A stretch of DNA of 12,328 nt, taken from NCBI GenBank assembly GCA_043812975.1, contig JBDRLP010000064.1, positions 1 through 12,328 of the forward strand, given 5' to 3'. Source of the stretch: Candidatus Iainarchaeum sp. GTDB taxonomy: Archaea > Iainarchaeota > Iainarchaeia > Iainarchaeales > Iainarchaeaceae. The translations under genes were made by a program, and so were the position numbers. This document shows, one piece after another, positions 1 through 12,328 of the stretch. Numbering within the stretch: the first letter of the stretch is position 1; each line of letters starts with the position of its first letter. The notes beneath the pieces were generated by a model. That model did not search any database. It was not told the DNA's origin and saw nothing but the letters and a program-made list of their open reading frames with translations.

Positions 1-1230
1 CCAGATCTTTTCGGAATACCTAATGTTGAAGTAGAGGAAAACTCAGGAGTAAACTCAAACCTAATAGACCTTTGGGATTACGCTGATGATTTTGAAGATT
101 TTGATTACCAATTAGATTTCAGAATAGTAACAGAAACAAACTCGGCTTTGGTTGATTGTTTCATAGAACTTGACAGATACTTAAGCTGTGATGTTGAACA
201 AGCAAACTCAGTAGGTTCAAGCTCAGTAACTGTAGAAGTAGAAGATACAGACGGAGCAACTGATTTGGATAGTTTTACTGTTAGTGTAATCTCAAGCAAT
301 GACAGACCAAATTTAAGCGGAATACCAGATGTTAAAGTTGATGAAAACGATGGTTTCCAGAACAATATTATAGATCTTTTTGATTACTCATATGATAATC
401 AGGATTCAGATTCAGAATTAGATTTTGTAATTACAAACCAGACTAACTCTGGTTTAATAGATTGTTTTATTGATTCAGACAGGTATGTTGACTGTGATGC
501 TCCTAATAATGACCAAACAGGAACAAACACAATAACTGTAAGAGTAAGAGATACGGATGGATCAACAGATACAGATACTTTCAGAGTAATAGTAATAGAA
601 CTCGATACTAACGAAGATCCAATATTATCAGGAATACCAGATGTGGAAGTTAATGAAAACGACGGGGTTCAGAACAACATTATAGATTTGTTCCCTTATG
701 CTTCAGACAACGAAGACACTGATTCAGAATTAAATTTCGAAATTGTTAACCAGACAGACCCTGATCTTATATTTTGTGAAATAGATCAGGACAGATATAT
801 TGACTGTGACCCTCCAAGAACAAATGACACAGGAACTAACACAATTACTGTAGAAGTAACTGATAGAGATGGGGCAACTGATCAGGATACTTTCAGAGTT
901 ATAGTAAAAGATAATGGTAATGGCGGAAGCAATGATGCTCCAAGAATTAGTGGTTTGCCGGATCTTGAAATAGAGGAAAACTCAGGGCAAAGAAACAACT
1001 TGGTGGATTTACATTCATACGCTTTTGATAGCGAAGATTCTGACTCAGAATTAGATTTCAGGATTTCTAACCAGAGCAACACAAGCCTCATTTACTGTAC
1101 AATTGATCAGGATAGGTACTTTGAGTGTGAAGCTCCAAGAAATGATTATACAGGCACAAGCACAATTACGATTGAAGTAGAAGATACAGACGGAGCAACA
1201 GATTCAGATACTTTTACAATAGAAGTTACA
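1..1230 (+). repeat. Four tandem cadherin-like (Ca-binding Ig-fold) domain repeats, ~300-320 bp each
   Basis: Units start near 1, 298 (NDRP), 610 (NEDP) and 931 (NDAP). Consensus PxxxGxPxxxxxENxGxxxNxxDLxxY..D..D.D..L.F.I....C.I..DRY..C.....G...ITV.V.D.DG.TD.D.F. An exact 26-bp match links 235-260 and 1174-1199. Confidence 0.9.
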
Positions 1231-3081
1231 GCACAAAACTCAGGAGTATGCTCAGATATTGATATTGTTACAAGAACCATTTTCATTGATGAAGATGACA
1301 CAGAAACAATAAGGTTTGACATCATAAACAGAGGAGACGATGATTTCAGAGTATTTGATGCAGATGTTGATGTAACAAACAACAGCACTTATTTAGACGC
1401 AAGAGACCTTGATTTTGATACCTTAATCAGAGAAAATGATGAAGGGGAAATAGAAATAAGATTAGACAGCTCTAGTGTTTCAAGCGACAAAGAAGCAACA
1501 GTTAAAGTAAGAATCAGAGGAGAATTTGACAACGGAAGAAGTTGTAGTTTCTCAGATATTGAAGAATCGTTCAGAGTATGGATTGACAACGAAGGGTCAG
1601 GCGGAAGCACAAGCAATTCCTGTTCAGATATTGATTTTAAACAGAGAACAGTTTCAATGGATGAATCTGACACTGAAACATTCAAGTTTGATGTTGAAAA
1701 CAATGGAAATGACGATTTTAGAATTACAGATGTAGATGTTTACGAAAGCAGCTCATATTTGAGCGTAGTTGATTTTGATGACAGAGGCACAATAAGAGAT
1801 AATGATGACCTTGAACTTGAAATAGAACTAAGAAGCAACAGTGTTTCAAGCGACAAAACAGCAACTGTTTACGTTGACATAAGAGGAGAATTTGATGATG
1901 GAAAAACCTGTAGCTTTTCACAAATCGGCAGGGAATCATTCAAAGTTGAAATCGAAAACTCAGGAAGTTCAGGAAGCAGCACTAGTTGCAACGATATAGA
2001 AATTGATGCTTCAGACGTAACAATACAGGAAGACAGTTCAAGAACAAAAATAATCAAAATAAAAAATGACAACAGCAGAAACTTTGAAGTTGATAATATT
2101 ACTGTTTCAGAAAGCAATTCTTACTTTAATATCAGCACAATAAATGAACCTGAAAGAATCTCAGCTAACGATGACGGAGAACTTGAAATTAAAATATACA
2201 CAAACAGCGTTTCAAGTGACAAAAGCGGAGATGTAGAGGTAAGGGTTTCAGGAGAATTCAGCAACGGAGTAAACTGTTCAGGCTCAAAAATAACAGAAAA
2301 GTTTAAGGTTACAGTAGATAACACGGAATCAGGAAGCTCAAACAACGATGATTTTAGTGGTTCTGTAAAAGTAGACTTTTCAAACAACTTTGCAATCTTA
2401 GAAAAAGGGCAAACCAAAAACATTAATGTTACAATCAAAAATGGTTTGAATGACAGGCAATGTTTTGATTTAAGTGCTAATGATACTACAGTATTCACAA
2501 CCTCCCTATCAAGCACAGAAGTATGTATTGCTGAGAACGGCACAGAAACAATCAGCATGAGTATAACCGGAAGGAACTCAGGAACAGATAATGTAAAATT
2601 CAAGGCCGAGTATGATGGTATTTCAAAGATTAAATTTGTAAGCGTGGAAGTTCTGGACGATGGAAGCACCACAGGAGACAGACCACAAATAAGTATTCCT
2701 GATGATCCAGCAGATCTTTTCAGGGATAATGAAATAATCCTTACAAACTCAGGAACAGAATTAAGAAACGTTACAATAAGGGCTTTGAACGCACCAGAAG
2801 GAGTTAATATTGAAGAAGTTTACCTAAGCAGATGGGAAACAGGAGAAACCCTCGGAATAGAAGTTGATGTAGAACCTGGTTTTGACGGAGTTGTTGATAT
2901 TACCTTAAGCATTAGCTCAGATTCAGGCTCAATAGGAGTACCAGTAGAATTCAGAGCAAGCGAAGGTCAAGGTTTTACAGGACTAGTTGGATTGGCAACC
3001 ACTGCAGGAATGGCCATTGGATTGATTATAATCGTGGTTTTAGTCATATTAGGCATTTTAAGCATATTTTCAAAGAAATAA
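1..3081 (+). CDS. Large cell-surface protein, 5'-truncated: at least 4 cadherin-like repeats, 3 Cys-bracketed Ig-like repeats, further Ig-like domains and a C-terminal TM anchor
   Basis: Frame 1 is open from base 1 (PDLFGIPNVEVEENSG...), so the TTG at 148 is internal. ~100-aa repeats carry N(D/E)xP, DxED/DNQD and D(T/R)DG acidic motifs and C-x9-C. The C-terminus is GFTGL...MAIGLIIIVVLVILGILSIFSKK*. The protein is very Asp/Glu-rich. Confidence 0.9.
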   Translation, partial: PDLFGIPNVEVEENSGVNSNLIDLWDYADDFEDFDYQLDFRIVTETNSALVDCFIELDRYLSCDVEQANSVGSSSVTVEVEDTDGATDLDSFTVSVISSNDRPNLSGIPDVKVDENDGFQNNIIDLFDYSYDNQDSDSELDFVITNQTNSGLIDCFIDSDRYVDCDAPNNDQTGTNTITVRVRDTDGSTDTDTFRVIVIELDTNEDPILSGIPDVEVNENDGVQNNIIDLFPYASDNEDTDSELNFEIVNQTDPDLIFCEIDQDRYIDCDPPRTNDTGTNTITVEVTDRDGATDQDTFRVIVKDNGNGGSNDAPRISGLPDLEIEENSGQRNNLVDLHSYAFDSEDSDSELDFRISNQSNTSLIYCTIDQDRYFECEAPRNDYTGTSTITIEVEDTDGATDSDTFTIEVTAQNSGVCSDIDIVTRTIFIDEDDTETIRFDIINRGDDDFRVFDADVDVTNNSTYLDARDLDFDTLIRENDEGEIEIRLDSSSVSSDKEATVKVRIRGEFDNGRSCSFSDIEESFRVWIDNEGSGGSTSNSCSDIDFKQRTVSMDESDTETFKFDVENNGNDDFRITDVDVYESSSYLSVVDFDDRGTIRDNDDLELEIELRSNSVSSDKTATVYVDIRGEFDDGKTCSFSQIGRESFKVEIENSGSSGSSTSCNDIEIDASDVTIQEDSSRTKIIKIKNDNSRNFEVDNITVSESNSYFNISTINEPERISANDDGELEIKIYTNSVSSDKSGDVEVRVSGEFSNGVNCSGSKITEKFKVTVDNTESGSSNNDDFSGSVKVDFSNNFAILEKGQTKNINVTIKNGLNDRQCFDLSANDTTVFTTSLSSTEVCIAENGTETISMSITGRNSGTDNVKFKAEYDGISKIKFVSVEVLDDGSTTGDRPQISIPDDPADLFRDNEIILTNSGTELRNVTIRALNAPEGVNIEEVYLSRWETGETLGIEVDVEPGFDGVVDITLSISSDSGSIGVPVEFRASEGQGFTGLVGLATTAGMAIGLIIIVVLVILGILSIFSKK
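1249..2325 (+). repeat. Three tandem ~123-aa beta-rich repeats (C[SN]DI...SVSSDK...GEFxxGxxCS) joined by Ser/Gly linkers
   Basis: Units start at 1249, 1621 and 1987 (spacing 372 and 366 bp). The exact 18-mer agtgtttcaagcgacaaa occurs at 1474-1491 and 1840-1857. Confidence 0.9.
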
Positions 3082-3083
3082 AC

Positions 3084-3089
3084 TTTTTT
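3084..3089 (+). terminator. Oligo-T archaeal terminator candidate after the first gene
   Basis: TTTTTT lies 2 nt after the TAA stop at 3079-3081. Confidence 0.45.
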
Positions 3090-3097
3090 CAAACAAA

Positions 3098-3111
3098 GAA
3101 ACATTTATATA
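3098..3111 (+). promoter_or_regulatory. Archaeal BRE+TATA promoter for the 3164-9413 gene run
   Basis: gaaaca followed by TTTATATA (3104-3111). Predicted start near 3134 gives a ~30-nt leader. Confidence 0.6.
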
Positions 3112-3163
3112 TGAGCTAAGCAGCAATAGATATAACAAAGTCGAGTGAACAAGTGAACTTATT

Positions 3164-3982
3164 ATGAAATTGTGGGGATTATTAATTTTGGTTTTAGCAT
3201 TGCTCTTATCAACAGGAGCATCAGCTTTTGTGAATAGCCTAGAAAACACAATCAGTGTTGGCGAGACAGCTTACGAATTATCTTACACAGTTGAAAACAC
3301 TTCAAACATTAAACAACCACTTACAGTCGATTATGATTTGCCAACTGATTTTGAAATTGTTAAGCAACCAAATTATGTTAACGCAAACTCAACACAGGAA
3401 ATTGTTGTAAAAATTTTACCACAGCAAGGGTTTGAAGGAACAACTTATACTGGAATGATTACAATTAACCTCGGCGGAAACAAAGCTGAAAAAAGAATTA
3501 ATGTTTCATACTTAAAAGAAAACACCTGTACTGTTGAAAGAGAAGTTTCAGTAGAGGAAGATAAGGTTACAATTTTACTTAAAAATAATTCTTACAATGG
3601 CAAAACAATGAAATTATCTGAGGTTAAGAATCTGCCAAATGATTGGGTTCTTAATACGGGTGCAAGTTTTGTTCTGAACAGTTTTGAAAAGAAAACTTAT
3701 GAACTTGAATTGCAAAAAGAAAGTTCATTTGATGGAGAACTTGAATTCGTTTTTGAATGTCAAGGAGAAACTTTTACAAACAAAGTAAAAGTAAAACATG
3801 AAGGAAATGATTTCACTGGTTTTGCAATCGCAGGAAGTGCGCTTTATAGTGTTGATTCTGAATTAATCATTGATATTTTCTTGGTTATCATAGCGGCAAT
3901 ATTACTGATAGCTTTTATCGCAAGACTAGTAAAAGTTTTGAATTCAGACGGAAAGCAGACAAAAATCGAGGTGGACCAATGA
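3164..3982 (+). CDS. Small secreted, membrane-anchored surface protein with two probable Ig-like domains
   Basis: Signal peptide MKLWGLLILVLALLLSTGASA, beta-rich body, FTGFAI motif, then TM helix LIIDIFLVIIAAILLIAFIA followed by RLVK. Confidence 0.85.
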   Translation: MKLWGLLILVLALLLSTGASAFVNSLENTISVGETAYELSYTVENTSNIKQPLTVDYDLPTDFEIVKQPNYVNANSTQEIVVKILPQQGFEGTTYTGMITINLGGNKAEKRINVSYLKENTCTVEREVSVEEDKVTILLKNNSYNGKTMKLSEVKNLPNDWVLNTGASFVLNSFEKKTYELELQKESSFDGELEFVFECQGETFTNKVKVKHEGNDFTGFAIAGSALYSVDSELIIDIFLVIIAAILLIAFIARLVKVLNSDGKQTKIEVDQ

Positions 3983-4071
3983 TTAGTTCAAACAAGTCTA
4001 GAAAAGTCCTACCGAGCACAAGCGAGGTGGACGCGTACCCCACCGACGCAACGGTGGAGGTGGACCAATGA
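3979..4071 (+). CDS. Putative 30-aa translational-coupling mini-ORF (MISSNKSRKVLPSTSEVDAYPTDATVEVDQ*)
   Basis: The ATG at 3979 is preceded by SD GAGGTG and overlaps the upstream stop (ATGA). There is no internal stop. Its TGA (4069-4071) overlaps the ATG at 4068. It is not in the ORF track. Confidence 0.45.
   Translation: MISSNKSRKVLPSTSEVDAYPTDATVEVDQ
4006..4057. repeat. Double-hairpin micro-element, copy 1 (REP-like or structured RNA motif)
   Basis: gtcc(t)acc-GAGCACAAGCGA-ggtggac, linker GCGTACC, then ccaccg-ACGCAA-cggtgg. Homologous to 9414-9467. Confidence 0.8.
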
Positions 4072-6239
4072 ACTTTTTAAAACATGCAATACTAGCAATA
4101 ACATTAATTTTAATTTCAATGACAGCAATAGCTGCATCAACTCCGGAAATCGAAGGAGTTCCAGATATTACTATTCAAATGAACGCTGATCCAATGGAAA
4201 AGTTTGTTGACCTAAGGGATTATGCAAAAGATGATTTTTCAAGCGCAGGAAATTTGTTTTACAAAATAAAAAACGAATCCAATGTACACTTAATTGATTG
4301 TTTTATTGAAGATGATTATTATGTTAGTTGTGAAGCTCCAATGAACGGAGTTTTGGGAACAAACACAATCACTGTTCAGGTTATTAACTCAAAAGGAACA
4401 GCTGATGATGATTCGTTTAATGTAAAAGTTTTTTCAGACGCAGTTCCTGAGCAGGTTATTTTCTCAGTTGACAGAGACGAAGTAATAATTGAACCAAGCG
4501 ACTCAATCAACGTTGTTCTTACAATAGAAAACCAATACCCTGAAAGAAAATGCTTTGAATTAGATGCTGAACTCGATCATGATGAAAGAGACGATATAAG
4601 GGCTGTTCCTGCAAAGGACAGTTTTTGTTTGAATGCAAACGAAAAAACAAGCCTTTCAATGACTATTACAAGCTTTGATGATGCTAGAGCAGATTTTTAC
4701 GATGTTGATGTAATCCTCGATTATGGCAACGGAAGCAGAGAATTAAGAGTAGATGTGGAAGTTGTTGATTTAGAAAACCCACTGGAACTTGTCAGAACAA
4801 GTGACTATTATGTTTGCAGAACTCCTTACACTCAGGAAATTGAAGTAAGGCTTGAAAACAATTCAAACAGATACCAGGAAATTCAATTAAACGCAGAACA
4901 CGAATTATTGATGCCTGAGTTTGAATACCCGGTAACAAGATTAGCTGCAAATGATTCTGATGAAATGGTTATGAGAATTCATGTTAACCAGACTACAGCA
5001 TTAACTGATTACACAATACCGGTTTTCATCAGAAGTGAAAATCATTTTGTTGAAAGAGACATTAAAATCAGGTTAATTGCTTGTGAAGATAATGTTTTTG
5101 ATCTTGATGTTACTCCAAACGAACAAAGAATTGAAAGAGGAGACAGGGAATTCTACACAGTAATCCTTACAAGTGCTGATGATGAAGCACAGAATGTAAG
5201 ATTAAGTGTTGATAGTGATTTACCAGCAGAACTTGAAAGTTATAATGTTTACTTGCAGGCTTATGGTGAAGTAAAACTTGACCTAGAGGTTAGAGCAAGA
5301 GAAAGCGATGATGACGGAAACCATAAGATTAAAGTTACAGCATGGAATAGCAAAGAAACAGAACAAGAAACTGTAAAAGCAATAGTTGAATCTGAACACA
5401 AACTTGAAATGATTATAGAAAATAATGACTTTGAAGCAAGAATCTGTTCAGCAACTGATGGACAGGTATTCGAAGCAAGAATCCTGAACACAGGAGACTA
5501 TGATGAAACAGTAGAACTTACACTTGCACACGTACACGAGTCTATACAGGCGATTCTCTCCGAGGATGAAATTGATATAGAGGCAGGGGGAGAGAAAACA
5601 GTGTACGTGTTCATAAATCCTTCATACGGAACACCGCTTGGAAACTACACATTAACTTTAATAGCTGAATCAGATCACGATGAACTGAGGGAACAGCTAA
5701 GATACAAAGTAGTTGAAGCAGAACAAAACGCAATCGAGGGAATAATTGAAATAACTTCATACCCAAGAGAAGTTGTTCTTGTTCCGGGTGAAGAAAAATT
5801 ACTTAGCTTTACAATAAAAAACCCGCTTTACGGAAGAATGGATAATGTAAGATTAAGATTCTTTGGAGCAAATAACGGAATAACTGTTTTTCCAATGAGC
5901 TTAGGTTCATTAGAAGCAGGAGAAAGCATTACAGTTAAGAGAACAATAAAGGCTTCAGAATCAGTATCAGAAAAAACATACGATTCAGTGATTGAAGTCA
6001 GGGCAGATGGCTATGTAACCGCTGTTCCAATGAGGATTAAAATCACAGAAACTCCGGAAAAAGAAATTGACGAAGAAGCCGGTTTACTGGCAGGATTCGC
6101 TGTTTTAGGCGGAGGAGAGATAATTCTCGGAGGGGTTATAATTATAATACTTCTCTTAGCAATAATAGTAATGTTGTCACTACTTAACAGTAACGAATCA
6201 AAAGGGACAGAATACTTAACAGAAAACAATGGGACGTGA
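4068..6239 (+). CDS. Secreted membrane-anchored surface protein: one N-terminal cadherin-like domain plus several CARDB/NEW3-like (COG1470-type) Ig domains
   Basis: SD GGAGGTG, signal peptide MNFLKHAILAITLILISMTAIA. Approximately 4143-4430 aligns with the repeats of the first gene (LIDCFIEDDYYVSCEAP...GTNTITV). Recurrent NxG...L...GExK...G.Y...v.a patterns. LAGFAV motif, then TM helix. Confidence 0.85.
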   Translation: MNFLKHAILAITLILISMTAIAASTPEIEGVPDITIQMNADPMEKFVDLRDYAKDDFSSAGNLFYKIKNESNVHLIDCFIEDDYYVSCEAPMNGVLGTNTITVQVINSKGTADDDSFNVKVFSDAVPEQVIFSVDRDEVIIEPSDSINVVLTIENQYPERKCFELDAELDHDERDDIRAVPAKDSFCLNANEKTSLSMTITSFDDARADFYDVDVILDYGNGSRELRVDVEVVDLENPLELVRTSDYYVCRTPYTQEIEVRLENNSNRYQEIQLNAEHELLMPEFEYPVTRLAANDSDEMVMRIHVNQTTALTDYTIPVFIRSENHFVERDIKIRLIACEDNVFDLDVTPNEQRIERGDREFYTVILTSADDEAQNVRLSVDSDLPAELESYNVYLQAYGEVKLDLEVRARESDDDGNHKIKVTAWNSKETEQETVKAIVESEHKLEMIIENNDFEARICSATDGQVFEARILNTGDYDETVELTLAHVHESIQAILSEDEIDIEAGGEKTVYVFINPSYGTPLGNYTLTLIAESDHDELREQLRYKVVEAEQNAIEGIIEITSYPREVVLVPGEEKLLSFTIKNPLYGRMDNVRLRFFGANNGITVFPMSLGSLEAGESITVKRTIKASESVSEKTYDSVIEVRADGYVTAVPMRIKITETPEKEIDEEAGLLAGFAVLGGGEIILGGVIIIILLLAIIVMLSLLNSNESKGTEYLTENNGT

Positions 6240-6245
6240 AACAAG

Positions 6246-9200
6246 ATGGATTACAAAATATTACTAGCAGGACTATTACTGATTACTTTTGGAGTTTATG
6301 CACAAAGTGCTGATGTTTCAGGAACTTGCGGAAACGACTCTCTTCAATGTGATATTTCACTTAACAACATGGAACTTTGTAACAATTCAACAGTTACAGA
6401 AACTTATGACGCTTATTTTAACGGAGAATACTCTCAGTGGTTTAACGTAATCCCAAGCCAAGTTACATTAGCACCTGGTGAATGTACAGACTTGAAAGTT
6501 TATACAGTTGCAAACTGTTATGCAGACCCTGGTTTTTACACAGCAAATTTAATTATTCAGGATGGAGAAACTCTATCAGTTACATGTGAACTTGATTTAA
6601 GACAAGGACACTTTATTGAGATTGAAGTTGAACCTCAAAGTCAGAACGCAACTCAGTGTGAAGAAAAAGTTTACGATTTAATTGTTACAAACAACACAAT
6701 TGTTCCAAACCAACAGATAGAAAGAGTAGACCTAAGCATTAGCGGTATACCAGAATCATGGTATGTTTTGGAAGAAGAAAGAATCCTTGTAGATAAAGGA
6801 GAATCAGAAATAGTACAACTAAGAGTTCAGGCACCTTGTGATACAGATTTCGGAGCTTACGATTTTACTGCAAGAGCAACTTTACCAAACCCTAACTTTT
6901 ATGACGAGGATAACGGAGAATACGTTCTTAATCAGGGTCAATCAATTCAGATTTTGTTAGAAACTGGTTTTGATGACAATTTACATGATGCTTGTTTAGA
7001 AATTCCAACTGAAGGAAAAATAACTATAATTAACAACGGAAAACTTTCAGACAACCTGAATGTTACTCTTGTAGGATCAAACTTTGCAAGAATTGACAAA
7101 ACTCAGTTATCTTTAGGACCTGGTGAAGAAGAAACACTAACTGTTGACTTCAGAGAAACAACAGAAGAACCAGGCGAATATGATTTTACAGTAAGAGTTG
7201 AAAGCACAGTATTTGATTATTCAACAAGCAAAACTTTTTCCTCAAATCTACAGGATTGTTTCAATGTAGAAGTAATAAAGTTAAAGGGAGAAAGTGACGT
7301 TTGTGTGGAAGATAATCCACTATACAGATTCAAAGTTACAAACAACAAAGTAAGAACTGTTGACCTTGATATAAGCATTGAAGGAATTGAAGCAGACCTT
7401 GACAAAACAAGAATTGTTGTCGGACCAGGCGAATCAGAAGAATTTGAAGCTTTACTTGATGTTAGCGATCTTGCAAGAGAAGCAAGAGTAAGCAAAACAG
7501 ATCTTGCAGTTGAAATAATCATTGATACCTCAGGTTCAATGGTTGAAAGAATCAACGGACATAACAAAATGGAAGTTGCTAAAACATCAATAATTAACTT
7601 AGTAAACAACATCAGCGAAGTTGACCTTGGATTAAGAGTATTAGGACAGGGAGAACTTTGTGAAGACTCAGAATTACTTGTTGCAGTAGATAAACTTGAT
7701 ATAGCAAGAATTACTGATGAAATTTCAGAATTAACTCCAAAAGGAAAAACTCCTTTGACACAGGCTCTAAAAGCTAGTATAGGGGATTTCCCAAGCGATA
7801 AAGAAAAAGCAATAATCCTTGTAAGTGACGGAAAAGAAACCTGTGAAGGAAACATAAGCGAAACCGCAAGAGAATTAGCTTCACAAGGCGTAATGGTTTA
7901 CTCGGTAGGATTTGACATTGATGCAGAAGGACAAGAACAATTAAAGGAAATTTCAAACAGAACTAATGGAAAATATTTCGATGCAAGAAACCCTGAAGAA
8001 CTTGTTGATGTTTTGCAGAAAATCTCACAAGAACTTGACATTGTTCCAAGTAATGAAGGAAAAAGAACCTTTACTTTGAATCTTGATTCAGATAACTTTA
8101 GTTTCGAGAAAGATTATAGTTTAACAATCAGCGATTGTTTCAACGCAACAATGGTAGCTCCAGAACTTAATTTATGTAAAGGAGTAACCAAAAGCGATGT
8201 TATAACATTAGTGAACCTTGGTTCAGAAACACAAGAATTTGATATTGACATTGGACCTAACTGGATTAGAACACCAGGAACAGTTACAATTGAACCAAAC
8301 AGCGAAGAAGTAATTCCACTAACAGCATTAGTTCCAGAAAATCCAAGCGAAGATTCATACACAATAAACGCAGTATCAGGAACCATTAAGTTAGAACAGG
8401 AAAAGAATATCAATTACCTTTCAAGCGCAAGCTGTTTTGGAATAGACTTAATATTGTTAGAACCTCAATTGGACGCAGCAACATGTGAAGGAAAGAAACA
8501 AATACTTATCATAGAAAACAGAGGAGTTGTTGAACAAGAAATAACAATAACTGCTGACAAACCTTATGTTGAAATTGTTGATGAGGTTATTAGCGTTAAA
8601 CCAGGAGAAAGAAAAGAAGTTAACTTCTTTGTAAGCCCTCCGTTTGATTTGCCTGAAACAACATTCATAAACATAATTGCAGAAACAGAAAGAGGTTTCA
8701 AAACAACTGCTCAGATCAAATTAGTGGTTTTCGGAAACCAGGATTCATTTGGTTTGGGAGAAGTTGATGTAAGAGTCAGAGACCTTAACATTACTAAAGT
8801 TGAAGGACTTGAACACAACCTTGAGGTTATGTTTGACATATATAATGATTCAAACAGAACACTGGAAGTATTCAACGTAACTTCACTTGACTATAATGCA
8901 ATTGTACAGCTAGATAAAAGATTTATACAGGCAAAAAGAACAGTCATGGCAAGAATGCTGGTCGATCTTCCTGATGAATTCACATCAAGAACAATAACTG
9001 TTCCAATAAAACTTGAAACAGATGAGGGAACTTACACAAGAAACATTGTGTTTAGTTACACCGCATCTGAAGATGGTGAACCAGTTGAGGGAGAAGTTGA
9101 TGAACCAATCAGCATCGGAACCGGATTATTTAATTTAGCAACATTGTCAACAGCATTACTTGGAGCACTCATAGTAATTGTTATTGGCTTAGTTATTTAC

Positions 9201-9413
9201 TCAGCTTACAGAGCAGTTAAGAATGATGATGAAGTTGAAGAAAAGCCAGAAGAAGACGAAGGCACTAAAGCTGTAAAGGCAAAACTGGCTGAAGTTAAAG
9301 CTAAGAAAGGCTCAAAGAAAGCAAAAAAGCCGGCGACCAAAGGGAGTCCCGCAGCAGGTGCCCGTGAGGGTGCAGGGGCTAAAAAAGCTAAAAAAAAGAA
9401 TAAGAAAAAGTAA
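6246..9413 (+). CDS. Secreted membrane-anchored Cys-rich multi-Ig protein with a von Willebrand factor A (MIDAS) domain and an acidic then Lys-rich cytoplasmic tail
   Basis: Signal peptide MDYKILLAGLLLITFGVYA. MIDAS motif DTSGS (7524-7538), T of TPL (7749) and SDG (7824-7832). GTGLF motif, then TM LLGALIVIVIGLVIYSAY. Confidence 0.9.
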   Translation: MDYKILLAGLLLITFGVYAQSADVSGTCGNDSLQCDISLNNMELCNNSTVTETYDAYFNGEYSQWFNVIPSQVTLAPGECTDLKVYTVANCYADPGFYTANLIIQDGETLSVTCELDLRQGHFIEIEVEPQSQNATQCEEKVYDLIVTNNTIVPNQQIERVDLSISGIPESWYVLEEERILVDKGESEIVQLRVQAPCDTDFGAYDFTARATLPNPNFYDEDNGEYVLNQGQSIQILLETGFDDNLHDACLEIPTEGKITIINNGKLSDNLNVTLVGSNFARIDKTQLSLGPGEEETLTVDFRETTEEPGEYDFTVRVESTVFDYSTSKTFSSNLQDCFNVEVIKLKGESDVCVEDNPLYRFKVTNNKVRTVDLDISIEGIEADLDKTRIVVGPGESEEFEALLDVSDLAREARVSKTDLAVEIIIDTSGSMVERINGHNKMEVAKTSIINLVNNISEVDLGLRVLGQGELCEDSELLVAVDKLDIARITDEISELTPKGKTPLTQALKASIGDFPSDKEKAIILVSDGKETCEGNISETARELASQGVMVYSVGFDIDAEGQEQLKEISNRTNGKYFDARNPEELVDVLQKISQELDIVPSNEGKRTFTLNLDSDNFSFEKDYSLTISDCFNATMVAPELNLCKGVTKSDVITLVNLGSETQEFDIDIGPNWIRTPGTVTIEPNSEEVIPLTALVPENPSEDSYTINAVSGTIKLEQEKNINYLSSASCFGIDLILLEPQLDAATCEGKKQILIIENRGVVEQEITITADKPYVEIVDEVISVKPGERKEVNFFVSPPFDLPETTFINIIAETERGFKTTAQIKLVVFGNQDSFGLGEVDVRVRDLNITKVEGLEHNLEVMFDIYNDSNRTLEVFNVTSLDYNAIVQLDKRFIQAKRTVMARMLVDLPDEFTSRTITVPIKLETDEGTYTRNIVFSYTASEDGEPVEGEVDEPISIGTGLFNLATLSTALLGALIVIVIGLVIYSAYRAVKNDDEVEEKPEEDEGTKAVKAKLAEVKAKKGSKKAKKPATKGSPAAGAREGAGAKKAKKKNKKK
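9330..9377. repeat. GC-rich hairpin-forming 48-bp in-frame insert (PATKGSPAAGAREGAG) in the Lys-rich tail
   Basis: 35 of 48 bases are G+C in AT-rich DNA. Hairpins ggc-GA-cc-AAA-gg-GA-gtc (9332-9348) and gtgccc-GTGA-gggtgc (9358-9373). Flanked by aaaaaagc at 9323-9330 and 9381-9388. Confidence 0.6.
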
Positions 9414-9467
9414 GTACTATCGAGCCTAAGTGAAGATAGTACGCGTACCCAACAGCCGCAACTGTTG
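9414..9467. repeat. Double-hairpin micro-element, copy 2, filling the convergent intergenic gap
   Basis: gtactatc-GAGCCTAAGTGAA-gatagtac, linker GCGTACC, then caacag-CCGCAA-ctgttg. Confidence 0.8.
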
Positions 9468-9469
9468 AA

Positions 9470-10132
9470 TTACTTTTTTCCATTTGAATAAAAATAGTTG
9501 GCCACGAAAGGACTGTTAATTAAAAGCGCTTTTTCCTGGTCTTCTGATTCTTTTTCTTGATTCAAAAACAGCATTACACTGTTTTTATCAAACACTATAA
9601 ACCTTGAACTCAAACTTGATTTTGAAATTATCTTCACTCCTTTCTTGTTTAAAGAGGCTAGTTTTTTATCAAAATAGCCTTTTTTTCTCTTCAAACCCTG
9701 CTCTGAAGAGCATATTAACACGTTTTCTTTAGTGTTTTCTAGCTGTTCAGCTATTTTTGAGTAAATATTACGCCTTCCCTCTACCACCCAGGCAGAATCA
9801 CTGAAATCAGCCTCAATAAATGCTTTTTGCTCGAGAGTTCTGGCTATAACCTTGAATTCTTCCAAATTTTTATCAAGTTCTTTTTTCTTAGCTTCAGAAA
9901 CAGATTCTACTGCAATAAGCGGTTTTACAACACGGAACTCTATTGGCTTAGAAGCACTTCTTGTAACAAAACCTTTTTTTTCAAGGGAAAAAAGCACATC
10001 ATAAACCCTAGCTCTTGGAATATTTGATGCTTTACTTACCGAAACAGCACTAGCCTTAGCATTACCCAAAAGAGCATTATAAGCACGAGCTTCATACTCA
10101 TTTAAACCAAGTTTTTTTATGCTTTCAATCAT
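9470..10132 (-). CDS. trmB: TrmB-family transcriptional regulator
   Basis: N-terminal LGLNEYEARAYNALL...SNIPRARVYDVLFSLEKKGFV...P.EF...P is the TrmB winged-HTH signature, followed by a coiled coil and a shortened effector-type domain (WVVEGRRNI, RFIVFD). The symbol indicates the family only. Confidence 0.9.
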   Translation of the reverse strand: MIESIKKLGLNEYEARAYNALLGNAKASAVSVSKASNIPRARVYDVLFSLEKKGFVTRSASKPIEFRVVKPLIAVESVSEAKKKELDKNLEEFKVIARTLEQKAFIEADFSDSAWVVEGRRNIYSKIAEQLENTKENVLICSSEQGLKRKKGYFDKKLASLNKKGVKIISKSSLSSRFIVFDKNSVMLFLNQEKESEDQEKALLINSPFVANYFYSNGKK

Positions 10133-10136
10133 AGCA

Positions 10137-10168
10137 ACTACAAGGAAGTAGTAATATAAAAGATTTTT
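10137..10168 (-). promoter_or_regulatory. trmB promoter (BRE+TATA, leaderless) with an adjacent palindromic operator candidate
   Basis: The minus strand reads aaaaatct-TTTATATT (10160-10153), 28 nt before the ATG. ACTAC-N6-GTAGT at 10137-10152 lies between the TATA box and the start codon. Confidence 0.6.
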
Positions 10169-10175
10169 TATCGCG

Positions 10176-10193
10176 GAAAAACACGTTTAAATA
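10176..10193 (+). promoter_or_regulatory. BRE+TATA promoter of the 70-aa gene (leaderless), divergent from trmB
   Basis: gaaaaacacg then TTTAAATA (10186-10193), 30 nt before the ATG at 10216. Confidence 0.6.
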
Positions 10194-10215
10194 CAATATT
10201 CTACTATTCTTTATT

Positions 10216-10428
10216 ATGAGAGTCAGAAGAGATATCAGAGAAAGGGAAAGCAGATTAATTGCAGCAAGAGCTGCTGCCGCAAAAAGAAAGGAAAGGCGTA
10301 CTGCTGAAGAGCTCGCAAAGGCAGCCGAAATATATGAAAATTACCTGTCCGACAAGGGCGGAAAACAAAGAGCAAAGGTTGTTGAGAAAGCAATAGCCCT
10401 TTTGAAAAAACATGACCTACTGAAATAA
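10216..10428 (+). CDS. Small basic helical hypothetical protein (70 aa)
   Basis: ATG start at the leaderless distance from a TATA box. Purine-rich codon style like its neighbours. No family recognised. Confidence 0.7.
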   Translation: MRVRRDIRERESRLIAARAAAAKRKERRTAEELAKAAEIYENYLSDKGGKQRAKVVEKAIALLKKHDLLK

Positions 10429-10444
10429 AAACCAAAAATGTAGA

Positions 10445-10452
10445 TTTAAATA
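10445..10452 (+). promoter_or_regulatory. TATA box of the 94-aa gene (leaderless)
   Basis: TTTAAATA 29 nt before the ATG at 10474, with an A-rich element upstream. Confidence 0.55.
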
Positions 10453-10473
10453 AAACCTTGACCTTATTTTTTC

Positions 10474-10758
10474 ATGAAAATAAAAAAACGCAAATCCTTT
10501 CCAAGAAGGGCTGGGGAAAGGCAAGAATCAAGAACAAGAATAATTGCAGAAGCGTATAAAATACCGAAAGTTCCCCTTTGGGATTGGTCCCGCGGGGAAA
10601 TTATAGAAGCAGAGAAAGCAAAGGAAAGATTTGAGGGAGAACTCGAAAAAGCGAGAAAAATAATGAAGTACCCTCAGAATCACACCGATGCGGAAATTGA
10701 AGAAGCACGGAGAACACTAAAAATGTTAGAAACAGTAAGAAAAAAATTAAAACGATAA
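10474..10758 (+). CDS. Small basic helical hypothetical protein (94 aa)
   Basis: Has its own TATA box. K/R-rich N-terminus MKIKKRKSFPRR and a charged helical C-terminal half. No family recognised. Confidence 0.7.
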   Translation: MKIKKRKSFPRRAGERQESRTRIIAEAYKIPKVPLWDWSRGEIIEAEKAKERFEGELEKARKIMKYPQNHTDAEIEEARRTLKMLETVRKKLKR

Positions 10759-10774
10759 ACCGTAATAAATAGCA

Positions 10775-10782
10775 CTTAAAAA
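10775..10782 (+). promoter_or_regulatory. TATA box candidate for the aminotransferase (leaderless)
   Basis: CTTAAAAA 30 nt before the ATG at 10805, the same spacing as the neighbouring genes. Confidence 0.45.
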
Positions 10783-10804
10783 CCTTCGCTAATTTTATTT
10801 TTAC

Positions 10805-12004
10805 ATGAAAAAAATTATTCCAGCATCCAGAACAAAAAATGTGAGGCACGCCCTGAGGGATATTGTTCCTCTTGCCGAAGAAGTTGAAAAAACAGGGAAA
10901 AAAGTTCTTTACCTCAACATCGGCGACCCAATGAAATTTGATTACAGCACACCCAAACACATGTGGGAAGCAATAGAAAAAAACAAAGACGAGGCAGAAG
11001 GCTACACCAATGCAATTGGTAATGTGTCCACAAGGCAAGCCATTGCAAATTATGCAAAAAAAATGGGTGCAGGAAACATCACAAAGGAAGATGTAATAAC
11101 ATTTGTCGGCGGAAGCGAAGCAATAATTCTTTCAATGCAGGCACTATTGAACCCTGGAGAAAACCTTGTGCTTCCAAGGCCTGGTTATTCGATTTACAAA
11201 GGAGAACTGAACTTCCTTGAATGCGAGGCAAATGAATATGATTTGAACGAGGAAGATTCATGGCAAACTGATGCTGAATCAATAAGACATCAAATAAATG
11301 AAAAAACGCAAGCAATTGTGGTCATTAATCCAAACAATCCAACGGGTTCACTCACAAACAAAAAACACTTACAAAAAATAATTGATATTGCAGGAGAACA
11401 CGAGTTAATGATTATTTCCGATGAAACATACGATCAGATTATTTTTGATGATGAGGAATTCACATCAATGGCATCAATAGCAAAAGATGTTCCGATCTTA
11501 GGACTTGGAAGCATATCAAAAACATATTTAGCCCCGGGATTCAGAGGAGGATGGTTATACAAACATGATCCGAACGGAGCAATGGATGATTATTTTGAGG
11601 CAATAAAAAAATTATGCAGATTGAGACTCAGCAATGTCGGCCCTACAGAAATAGCAATCCGAGCCGCGCTAGAAGGCCCACAAGATGGAATAAAAGAAAT
11701 GGTTTCCAAACTGCAAAACCGAAGAGATCTCACTTACAAAAGATTAAATGAAATTGAAGGCTTAAGCTGTGTGAAGCCAAAAGGGGCATTTTACGCATTT
11801 CCAAAAATCGATTTACCAGTGAAATCTGATAAAGATTTTGTGCTCTCGCTTCTAAAAGAAAAAGGAGTCCTTGTGGTTTATGGTTCTGGTTTTGGTCAAA
11901 AAGAAGGCACCAATCATTTCAGAGTCGTGTTTTTACCTCCAGAAGAAATATTAAACACTGCTTTTGATAAAATTGAAGAATTTATCAAGGAAAATTATTC
12001 GTAA
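10805..12004 (+). CDS. alaA: PLP-dependent class I/II aminotransferase, most like archaeal alanine aminotransferase
   Basis: Motifs YLNIGDP, INPNNPTG, SDETY, SISK (PLP lysine) TYLAPGFRGG, PKGAFY and HFRVVFLPP. The N-terminal ALRDIV...LNIGDPMKFD resembles Thermococcales AlaAT as I recall it. Substrate specificity is inferred. Confidence 0.88.
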   Translation: MKKIIPASRTKNVRHALRDIVPLAEEVEKTGKKVLYLNIGDPMKFDYSTPKHMWEAIEKNKDEAEGYTNAIGNVSTRQAIANYAKKMGAGNITKEDVITFVGGSEAIILSMQALLNPGENLVLPRPGYSIYKGELNFLECEANEYDLNEEDSWQTDAESIRHQINEKTQAIVVINPNNPTGSLTNKKHLQKIIDIAGEHELMIISDETYDQIIFDDEEFTSMASIAKDVPILGLGSISKTYLAPGFRGGWLYKHDPNGAMDDYFEAIKKLCRLRLSNVGPTEIAIRAALEGPQDGIKEMVSKLQNRRDLTYKRLNEIEGLSCVKPKGAFYAFPKIDLPVKSDKDFVLSLLKEKGVLVVYGSGFGQKEGTNHFRVVFLPPEEILNTAFDKIEEFIKENYS

Positions 12005-12025
12005 ATATTTTTAGAAAACAAACTG

Positions 12026-12061
12026 AGAAAAAGTATTTAAACACTAAAGTAGTATAGTGTT
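12026..12061 (+). promoter_or_regulatory. BRE+TATA promoter with an overlapping palindrome, upstream of an ORF-free structured region
   Basis: gagaaaaagta-TTTAAACA (TATA 12036-12043). AACACTA-N8-TAGTGTT at 12040-12061. Confidence 0.55.
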
Positions 12062-12064
12062 ATT

Positions 12065-12178
12065 GCGTATTGGGAGTTAAGGGGGTAAGCTACACTACGC
12101 CTGGTTTGAACTAACTTCAGAAAACTATTTTTTGAAGTTGTAGATCCCTGGCTTGCCCTTCTTACATTTACTACTTTT
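12065..12178 (+). ncRNA. Candidate structured small ncRNA of unknown family
   Basis: Outer stem ggggtaagc/gcttgccct (12082-12090 with 12151-12159) extended by taag/ctta. Inner 12-bp stem 12113-12124 with 12128-12139. The mismatches are G-U on the + strand. It has an upstream TATA, a T-rich 3' end and no ORF. Confidence 0.5.
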
Positions 12179-12195
12179 AACACAACAGGCTTTGT

Positions 12196-12240
12196 AGAAA
12201 TCATTTATAAATAAGAGAAAAGCGTTCATGTTATTGGTGA
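12196..12240 (+). promoter_or_regulatory. Internal promoter and SD for the ORF at 12247
   Basis: agaaatca then TTTATAAA (12204-12211). GGTGA at 12236-12240, 6 nt before the ATG. Confidence 0.6.
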
Positions 12241-12246
12241 TAACAT

Positions 12247-12328
12247 ATGAACGCTTTGATACCAATAGAACATTCTAAGTTTTTTAATCTTTGCTTGCGT
12301 GCTTTTGAGTACGCGAGAATACCGTTTC
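12247..12328 (+). CDS. N-terminal fragment of a probable transposase (MNALIPIEHSKFFNLCLRAFEYARIPF...)
   Basis: The SD-preceded ATG opens a frame that runs to the window end, inside the putative IS terminus. Only 27 codons are visible, so the product call rests mainly on context. Confidence 0.5.
   Translation, partial: MNALIPIEHSKFFNLCLRAFEYARIPF

Follow-up and report, generated by a model that had tools for sequence, protein, structure and literature searches.

Locus organization

We analysed a 12,328-nt stretch of DNA from Candidatus Iainarchaeum sp. (contig JBDRLP010000064.1 of assembly GCA_043812975.1, positions 1 to 12,328 of the forward strand; the window hereafter), in which a short GC-rich element lies at the stop/start overlap between a 272-aa gene and a 723-aa gene. 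The source genome, G000, is a metagenome-type assembly of 1.24 Mb in 68 contigs, with 35 per cent GC and 94 per cent completeness. Coordinates without a contig prefix are window positions, C1, C21 and the like are contigs of G000, and the genomes G001–G005 include congeners. Gene calls are simple open reading frame (ORF) scans. The junction comprises the following features:

3164..3982, + strand: upstream gene, 272 aa; TGA stop inside the first ATGA, protein ending ...EVDQ
3968..3982, + strand: target duplication, copy A; a single-copy segment in G001
3979..4071, + strand: candidate relay mini-ORF, 30 aa; stop-free, would read MISSNKSRKVLPSTSEVDAYPTDATVEVDQ
3983..4005, + strand: 5′ leader of the insert, 23 nt, A-rich; missing from the empty site
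4006..4032, + strand: hairpin P1; 4006–4013 pairs with 4026–4032
4033..4039, + strand: linker between P1 and P2; near-invariant alignment columns
4040..4057, + strand: hairpin P2, the 3′ end of the element; 6-bp stem, conserved 6-nt loop NCGNAA
4057..4071, + strand: target duplication, copy B; Shine-Dalgarno-like motif and ATGA
4068..6239, + strand: downstream gene, 723 aa; signal peptide, Ig-like (FixG_C-type) domains, C-terminal anchor

The 15-mer GAGGTGGACCAATGA is present in two exact copies, 3968–3982 and 4057–4071 (both on the + strand, 0 mismatches), which lie 89 bp apart. The chance expectation is 0.01 matches, none of 200 shuffles contained two copies, and no further copy with up to one mismatch exists elsewhere in the 1.24-Mb genome. 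Copy A comprises the upstream gene's final four codons and stop, a GAGGTG that resembles a Shine-Dalgarno motif, and the ATG of the relay ORF. In copy B, GAGGTG stands 5 nt before the ATG, and the ATGA is both the stop of the relay ORF and the start of the 723-aa gene. With the final codons and stop of one gene and the Shine-Dalgarno motif and start of the other all inside the duplicated 15 bp, each gene retains its full signals. An earlier sequence-only reading of this DNA had drawn attention to the pair of 15-mers, to the stop-free frame from 3979 to 4071 and its overlaps with the 272-aa stop and the 723-aa ATG, and to the shared EVDQ terminus of the relay peptide and the upstream protein; all of these are present exactly as described.

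The GC content is 0.57–0.62 within the insert versus 0.22–0.42 in the flanks. In P1, the T at 4010 bulges out, and a 2-bp apical helix with the loop ACAA is bordered by tandem G-A positions. The last paired G of P2 (4057) doubles as the first base of copy B. The 272-aa protein has a signal-peptide-like N-terminus and a hydrophobic anchor at its C-terminus, with no Pfam family assigned.

The empty site in related genomes

To look for an empty site, we compared window positions 3400–4700 with 40 relatives. The flanks in G001 are 83–86 per cent identical to the window, and the alignment falls into two pieces, the first stopping at window position 3982 and the next starting at 4057, that overlap by exactly 15 nt. 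G001 therefore has one 15-mer, a plain ATGA overlap, and no insert. The insert is also missing from G003, where the junction is slightly different: the orthologues of the 723-aa protein in G001 and G003 have a common MNFLK... stretch, which in G003 is preceded by three extra codons, and there is no ATGA overlap. The sequence-only reading had expected relatives to show a direct overlap, and had noted that removing one 15-mer plus the 74 nt between the two would restore it; the product of that removal is precisely the G001 junction. Its description of the repeat as target-site-like likewise agrees with the single target copy in G001 and with the duplications that flank other copies of the element (see below).

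Since the insert is absent from both G001 and G003, 89 bp was gained in the G000 lineage, made up of 74 new nucleotides and the second 15 bp. We count the 23 nt of 3983–4005 as inserted DNA because the empty site lacks them. They resemble the 5′ module of other copies only weakly: of 1000 shuffles, 50 scored as high, as did 72 of 1000 random 23-mers from the genome. We also considered whether these 23 nt are a decayed stretch of a longer target duplication, derived from the start of the downstream gene, and rejected the idea; the score sum was 43, and two of eleven mispaired controls reached 43 and 44.

Window positions 3983–4056 are one 74-nt member of a family of small GC-rich elements, non-coding and built of two hairpins, whose copies are scattered through G000. 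The comparison of junctions shows that it inserted into the ATGA overlap of two putatively co-transcribed surface-protein genes after the split from G001 and G003, duplicating 15 bp of the target.

Structure and distribution of the element

The core of the insert (4006–4057) recurs across the G000 genome, and we curated thirty-eight copies belonging to several subtypes, all of which have in common the 3′ hairpin P2 with its NCGNAA loop. In a structure alignment of twenty-two copies of the window copy's subtype, 93.0 per cent of cells were paired, compared to 80.5 per cent in shuffles and at most 49 per cent in slid controls. The covariation score (0.310, versus 0.113 in shuffles) was reached by none of 500 shuffles, and eight pairs have changes on both sides. 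Helices 1 and 2, with 87 and 97 per cent of cells paired, include compensatory changes. Helix 3 (P2) is paired in 98.5 per cent of cells, with pair 62–71 being CG in eleven sequences, AU in ten, and UA in one. On the given strand there are nine G-U cells and a single A-C cell, the latter noted by reading the alignment, and this imbalance hints that the given strand folds as a single strand. A pseudoknot formed by the linker and the P2 loop was considered and dropped, since the bases that would pair are lost in variants that have an extra hairpin.

From the twenty-two-copy alignment we made a covariance model, whose E-values are rough; it gave forty-six matches at E ≤ 0.1 in the G000 genome. 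Across the order, 38 of 151 genomes had matches, with per-genome counts of up to seventeen copies; within the same family the figure was 12 of 15. The element is 43–90 nt long across copies and sits mostly at gene boundaries. The Rfam covariance models had no match to the window copy at E ≤ 10, and on twenty other loci they returned only neighbouring tRNAs and one leader match (23 bits, against a gathering score of 70). Full-text literature searches, confined to the main texts of papers, gave no description of such elements in archaea.

The window holds a second member of the family:

9414..9467, + strand: second copy of the element; covariance model match of 66 bits

This copy begins directly after the TAA of a 1055-aa VWA-domain gene, lies 2 nt from the end of a TrmB-family gene in convergent orientation, and is not clearly flanked by a duplication (p = 0.035). 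Orthologous copies at C20:34906–34962 and at about 27109–27170 of G001:C5, just 5′ of the same tRNA gene, differ mostly in the apical part of P1, as if the tip were exchangeable. Two insertions specific to G000 relative to G001 and G003 (C1:13152–13263 and C21:11206–11272) are other GC-rich multi-hairpin modules that the model does not match. As for the genes around the junction, four co-directional genes occupy window positions 1–9413; their large products are secreted or anchored and have Ig-like and VWA domains, and the first gene contains internal tandem repeats of about 300 nt and 366 nt (D1 and D2).

Target duplications across the family

Eighteen of the thirty-eight G000 copies are flanked by duplications at p ≤ 0.005, ranging from 15 to 49 bp. 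The downstream duplicate starts 0–2 nt after the 3′ end of the element in seventeen of these eighteen, and the upstream duplicate ends 0–34 nt before P1. Six other genomes, which are kin and hence not independent samples, contributed 12 duplications of 12–44 bp among forty-two copies (G003 7/11, G007 2/6, G011 1/5, G045 1/7, G088 1/6, G015 0/7), and in eleven of the twelve the downstream duplicate lies 0–4 nt from the 3′ end. The sequence-only reading had proposed checking other copies for flanking duplications, and part of the family carries them.

At nine loci, the window junction and the eight listed here, congeners have an empty site with a single copy of the target:

C1:11432: 20-bp duplication
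C1:15550: 20-bp duplication
C1:19213/19308: 19–20-bp duplication
C21:9187: 15-bp duplication
C21:14394: 46-bp duplication, comprising the final 14 codons and stop of a gene
C14:21895: 47-bp duplication, running from 5′ of a TATA-like box to the ATG
C41:42353: 49-bp duplication
C27:49378: 25-bp duplication

We also ran a scan that made no use of the element, collecting exact direct repeats of at least 13 nt within 220 nt. Of the 136 pairs listed, we read about twenty-five as long repeats on either side of a GC-rich hairpin insert and about three as nearly naked, and the same element family appeared between the repeats. The nearly naked cases are tandem duplications of 29–31 bp with spacers of 3–25 nt (C14:5224–5285, C25:40836–40925, and C58:9300–9385), the sites being a gene end, a stop codon, and the 3′ half of a tRNA. 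Elements since lost may have left them as footprints. By eye, we saw neither a shared motif at the duplication boundaries nor a TATA-like box 5′ of them.

Reading frames through the inserts

The copies used for frame and relay counts were picked after inspection. Eleven of seventeen sense-oriented copies have a frame that runs from a start codon at or overlapping the upstream stop through the whole element. Seven of these frames stop on or just before the next start, three enter the next gene in frame, and the eleventh does neither, ending 44 nt past the element. A sibling at C65:1224 has a layout identical to that of the window copy, with a 15-bp duplication and a 74-nt insert, and its relay is closed too. 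Copies also lie in frame inside long ORFs, at C1:13702 (213 aa), C1:7806 (209 aa), and C34:14906 (190 aa).

Fourteen of sixteen translated copies agree in the frame of P2, which yields ..T(D/A)(A/E)TV (binomial P < 1e-4 against an expectation of one in three, by our own arithmetic), and the other two sense frames are rich in CGN arginine codons. This one preferred frame is the best evidence that ribosomes may read the inserts. The RNA fold predicted for the junction (−35.9 kcal/mol, z −2.7) keeps both hairpins and pairs the second Shine-Dalgarno/start region.

Termination–reinitiation coupling at ATGA overlaps has been reported in archaea (PMC6728339). In the window, ribosomes finishing the 272-aa gene would restart at the overlapping ATG at 3979 and read the element in its usual stop-free frame, giving a 30-aa peptide. 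Translation would melt the hairpins that otherwise pair with the second Shine-Dalgarno/start region, and the ribosomes would then halt at the second TGA and restart at ATG 4068 of the 723-aa gene, so that coupling is relayed over the insert. We infer that the 30-aa relay ORF is probably translated. The duplication would thereby render the insert harmless by keeping the genes coupled, as the relay frames across the family and their one preferred frame suggest.

Enzymes, orientation, and reuse of sites

We searched for enzymes that could move the element. A reverse transcriptase domain (RVT_1) was found in none of twenty-three family genomes that were 63–95 per cent complete, and the controls responded. 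G000 had no match to the Y1 transposase (PF01797) or to Cas1 (PF01867). Its transposase-related genes are one TnpB-like gene, one rve-type insertion sequence (IS) on C47, and two DDE_Tnp_1 genes; none of these tracks the element across the genus, in a search that covered only some transposase families, and no element-like sequence was seen among the inverted repeats of the rve-type IS. G000 also encodes three paralogous Xer-like tyrosine recombinases of 397–432 aa (C26:14106–15296, C26:5517–6608, and C20:22066–22977) in addition to a 282-aa XerA-type gene. The three score below every curated cut-off and have relatives in 72 of 151 genomes of the order. We considered them as the mover and rejected them: they were not found in the element-rich genomes G003, G011, and G012, and families that lack the element do have them.

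By our reading, about thirty-two of the thirty-eight copies are co-oriented with the gene that they touch, with C14:21895, C41:42353, C65:2743, and C44:6466 among the exceptions. Two copies end 0–1 nt before position 1 of a tRNA, the copy at C25:51390 lies a few nucleotides 5′ of a tRNA-like gene, and one further copy is found between two copies of a tRNA 3′ end.

Several junctions have been used more than once. At C1:19194–19380, three copies of one 19–20-bp junction segment separate two different hairpin elements, both of which are covered by one 60-aa relay frame, and P2 together with the target forms an exact 38-nt repeat. The same junction in G002 (G002:C8:5873–6102) holds about 230 nt of different hairpin modules, the last of which has its own hairpin-embedded Shine-Dalgarno motif and ATGA. 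At C41:42300–42470 and at about 760–920 of G003:C59, the same 49-bp duplication of a gene start surrounds unrelated inserts, the GC-rich element in G000 and an AT-rich hairpin of another repeat family in G003; G001 has neither. The gene end at C27:49353–49454 carries the element in G000, G003 (G003:C83), and G005 (G005:C29:3560–3690), and has no copy in G001, G002, or G004. All three occupied sites have the same 5′ junction within the stop codon, where the first G of the element rebuilds TAG, and the duplication is 25 bp in G000 and G003 versus 19 bp in G005. The different lengths at the same 5′ junction indicate at least two independent events at this one junction.

A copy of the AT-rich hairpin repeat also lies at C12:6111–6163, adjoining a match to archaeal RNase P RNA (C12:5796–6107) that is 312 nt long, compared to 253–265 nt in three congeners. 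An archaeal source is consistent with this archaeal-type RNase P RNA, with best hits to archaeal XerA, and with a TrmB regulator.

Taken together, these facts speak against both a transposase with a fixed ruler and a retroelement encoded in the genome. A junction defined by the target, combined with a variable second nick, would fit them. Our best guess is that the element moved in trans as a folded single strand, through host replication or repair functions or an unrecognised enzyme, with one junction set by the target and the varying position of the second nick producing duplications of 12–49 bp.

Main interpretation and alternatives

The best explanation of the observations as a whole is an insertion of the element with a 15-bp duplication, with coupling that would be relayed across it and, as a best guess, movement in trans; we give this explanation as a whole a probability of about 0.85. 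Several points weigh against it. Twenty of the thirty-eight G000 copies and thirty of the forty-two in the six other genomes have no significant flank duplication, and empty sites could in principle also come from precise deletion between duplicate copies. No mobilising enzyme was identified. Four public DNA runs gave contigs only for 3700–3914 and 4186–4400, none spanning the junction, and no public run containing the stretch is listed as RNA. For the relay, the count is small and post hoc, and six of the seventeen sense copies are without the arrangement. An open frame by itself counts for little, because the element has no stop in any of its sense frames, and the duplicated Shine-Dalgarno motif could drive direct initiation without a relay.

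These last points are also what would favour an irrelevant relay ORF. On this view the downstream gene is started de novo from its own duplicated ATG and Shine-Dalgarno motif, and the frame arises incidentally from placing GC-rich DNA in an AT-rich genome. Several copies have no stops in the three sense frames, and copy B has the full GAGGTG 5 nt 5′ of its ATG. We consider this possible, at odds well short of even. A freely placed P2 should share its frame in about a third of copies instead of fourteen of sixteen; seven of eleven through-frames end exactly on or beside the downstream start; and the predicted fold hides the second Shine-Dalgarno/start region that direct initiation would use.

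A retroposon resembling a short interspersed nuclear element (SINE), whose RNA is copied in by target-primed reverse transcription, would account for the fixed 3′ junction (abutting the duplication in 17 of 18 G000 copies and within 0–4 nt of it in 11 of 12 elsewhere), the duplications of 12–49 bp, the variable 5′ leaders, the roughly 32 of 38 copies that are gene-co-oriented, and the nine G-U cells versus one A-C cell that point to a folded single strand of the given polarity. Such a mechanism nonetheless seems improbable to us: RVT_1 was found in none of the twenty-three family genomes even though the element is in twelve of the fifteen searched, the copies have no A-rich or simple-repeat tail, and the independent events at C27:49378 have the 5′ junction in common and not the 3′ one.

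Somewhat more doubtful still is the idea that duplication came first, with tandem duplications arising at gene boundaries and elements later settling or swapping at the joint. The same duplicated segment does surround different elements at C1:19194 and at C41 in G000 versus G003, and nearly naked duplications exist at gene ends (e.g. C14:5224 and C25:40836). By reading, though, about twenty-five repeat pairs flank a hairpin insert versus about three that are nearly naked; relatives have either one target copy without an insert or two with one; and the 19-bp (G005) and 25-bp (G000 and G003) duplications at C27:49378 fit separate insertions.

We find little to recommend a regulatory RNA, for instance an attenuator or a processing site, that evolved locally in place of mobile DNA: its structure is conserved with covariation and several copies lie just after stop codons or just before tRNA genes, but the structure is missing from the orthologous junction in G001 and G003, occurs in dozens of copies in unrelated contexts including the inside of ORFs, is bounded by a target duplication, and matches no Rfam family. 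Least probable of all is that the 89-bp repeat unit is an artefact of the 68-contig metagenome-type assembly. No contig from the four public runs spans 3915–4185, but insert and repeats together measure only about 104 nt, the same anatomy is seen at many loci and in independent assemblies, and the two 15-mers sit in different unique flanks, both of which align to relatives.

Implications

Insertions should be costly in very small archaeal genomes because these have almost no non-coding DNA. The insertion described here suggests a way round this cost, in which the ends of both genes are restored by a long duplication of the target and the insert is translatable as a short relay. If the relay works, it is a natural archaeal bridging ORF that preserves translational coupling. 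We regard the element as selfish DNA.

The long and variable duplications, the lack of terminal inverted repeats, the lack of a recognisable transposase or reverse transcriptase, and the reuse of sites may together reflect an undescribed route of DNA mobility. More speculatively, and with doubt outweighing confidence, the family could represent a class of archaeal mobile DNA that moves without a known type of transposase or reverse transcriptase, its folded strand being joined to the target by replication or repair, with one junction fixed by the target and a variable second nick giving the 12–49-bp duplications, and its sequence shaped for ribosomes to read it in one harmless frame. Joining within such a class might proceed by, for example, an unprocessed flap or target-primed copying. 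If this were true, such elements could spread in minimal genomes with nearly no spacers, settling at stop/start overlaps, gene ends, and tRNA genes. The insertions are also an annotation hazard in DPANN-type genomes, where they can produce false small ORFs, changed gene ends, and apparent N-terminal extensions.

Comparison with known systems

The element does not pass the tests that define MITEs (miniature transposable elements with inverted repeats), repetitive extragenic palindromic (REP) sequences with their RAYT transposases, casposon-type elements, attC sites, and SINEs. It is like MITEs (Correia/NEMIS, ERIC, RUP, and Sulfolobus SM elements) in being multi-copy, non-coding, non-autonomous, and structured. 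However, P1 and P2 are separate hairpins of unrelated sequence and not terminal inverted repeats, and the duplications are of 15–49 bp in G000 and 12–44 bp in the six other genomes, in place of a short fixed length. No parent IS with ends matching the element was found, in the same search of only some transposase families.

SINEs also have a fixed 3′ junction, duplications of variable length such as those found here, a variable 5′ side, and a sense bias. They differ from the element described here, which comes with no reverse transcriptase in twenty-three family genomes, no tail repeat, and no known internal promoter. Casposon or Cas1-type features are likewise missing, as there is no Cas1 match in G000 and the duplication length varies. 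attC sites are hairpin arrays beside an integron integrase with a conserved GTTRRRY core; the copies here are dispersed, form no cassette arrays, and do not show the core motif in the alignment.

REP/REPIN sequences and the IS200/IS605-derived PATEs share with the element GC-rich hairpins that act as single strands, but REP/REPIN sequences are moved by RAYT (Y1) transposases, and no Y1 transposase was found in G000. REP and IS200-type insertion is not known to make a target duplication. Some copies of the element begin with GTAG, as do the GTAG-tagged REPs described in PMC3733652.

Long, variable target duplications without a linked mobility gene, often overlapping the 3′ end of a gene, are described for restriction–modification insertions (Furuta et al. 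2010, PMC2853133), and IS1630 makes duplications of 19–26 bp. Restriction–modification insertions are kilobase cargo in bacteria, in contrast to a hairpin module of 43–90 nt in dozens of copies, and IS1630 encodes its own transposase. The mobility of C/D-box small RNAs in Pyrobaculum (PMC6009581) was considered and set aside as a different thing.

Two bacterial systems resemble the element in how it is read. Rickettsia palindromic elements (RPEs) are not known to make a long target duplication. They are selfish palindromes inserted in frame within protein genes and translated as a conserved peptide (PMC10969869), much like the in-frame copies at C1:13702, C1:7806, and C34:14906 and the P2 hairpin with its same frame in fourteen of sixteen copies. 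RPEs are about 150 bp and bacterial, whereas the element here is archaeal, 43–90 nt long, and mostly found at gene boundaries.

Mycobacterial interspersed repetitive units (MIRUs) are tandem-repeat units, in arrays whose unit number varies. No MIRU-like tandem arrays were seen here, the copies being single except for the one pair of different elements at C1:19194. MIRUs are described as short, mobile-looking repeats at operon start codons, with an internal ORF coupled at −4 spacing and little effect on expression (PMC12548453). They are bacterial, and the element is an archaeal two-hairpin unit with a 12–49-bp target duplication; a sequence relation is not expected. In layout the two agree: an internal ORF placed over the upstream stop and the downstream start is what is found at 3979–4071 and in seven of the eleven copies that are read through.

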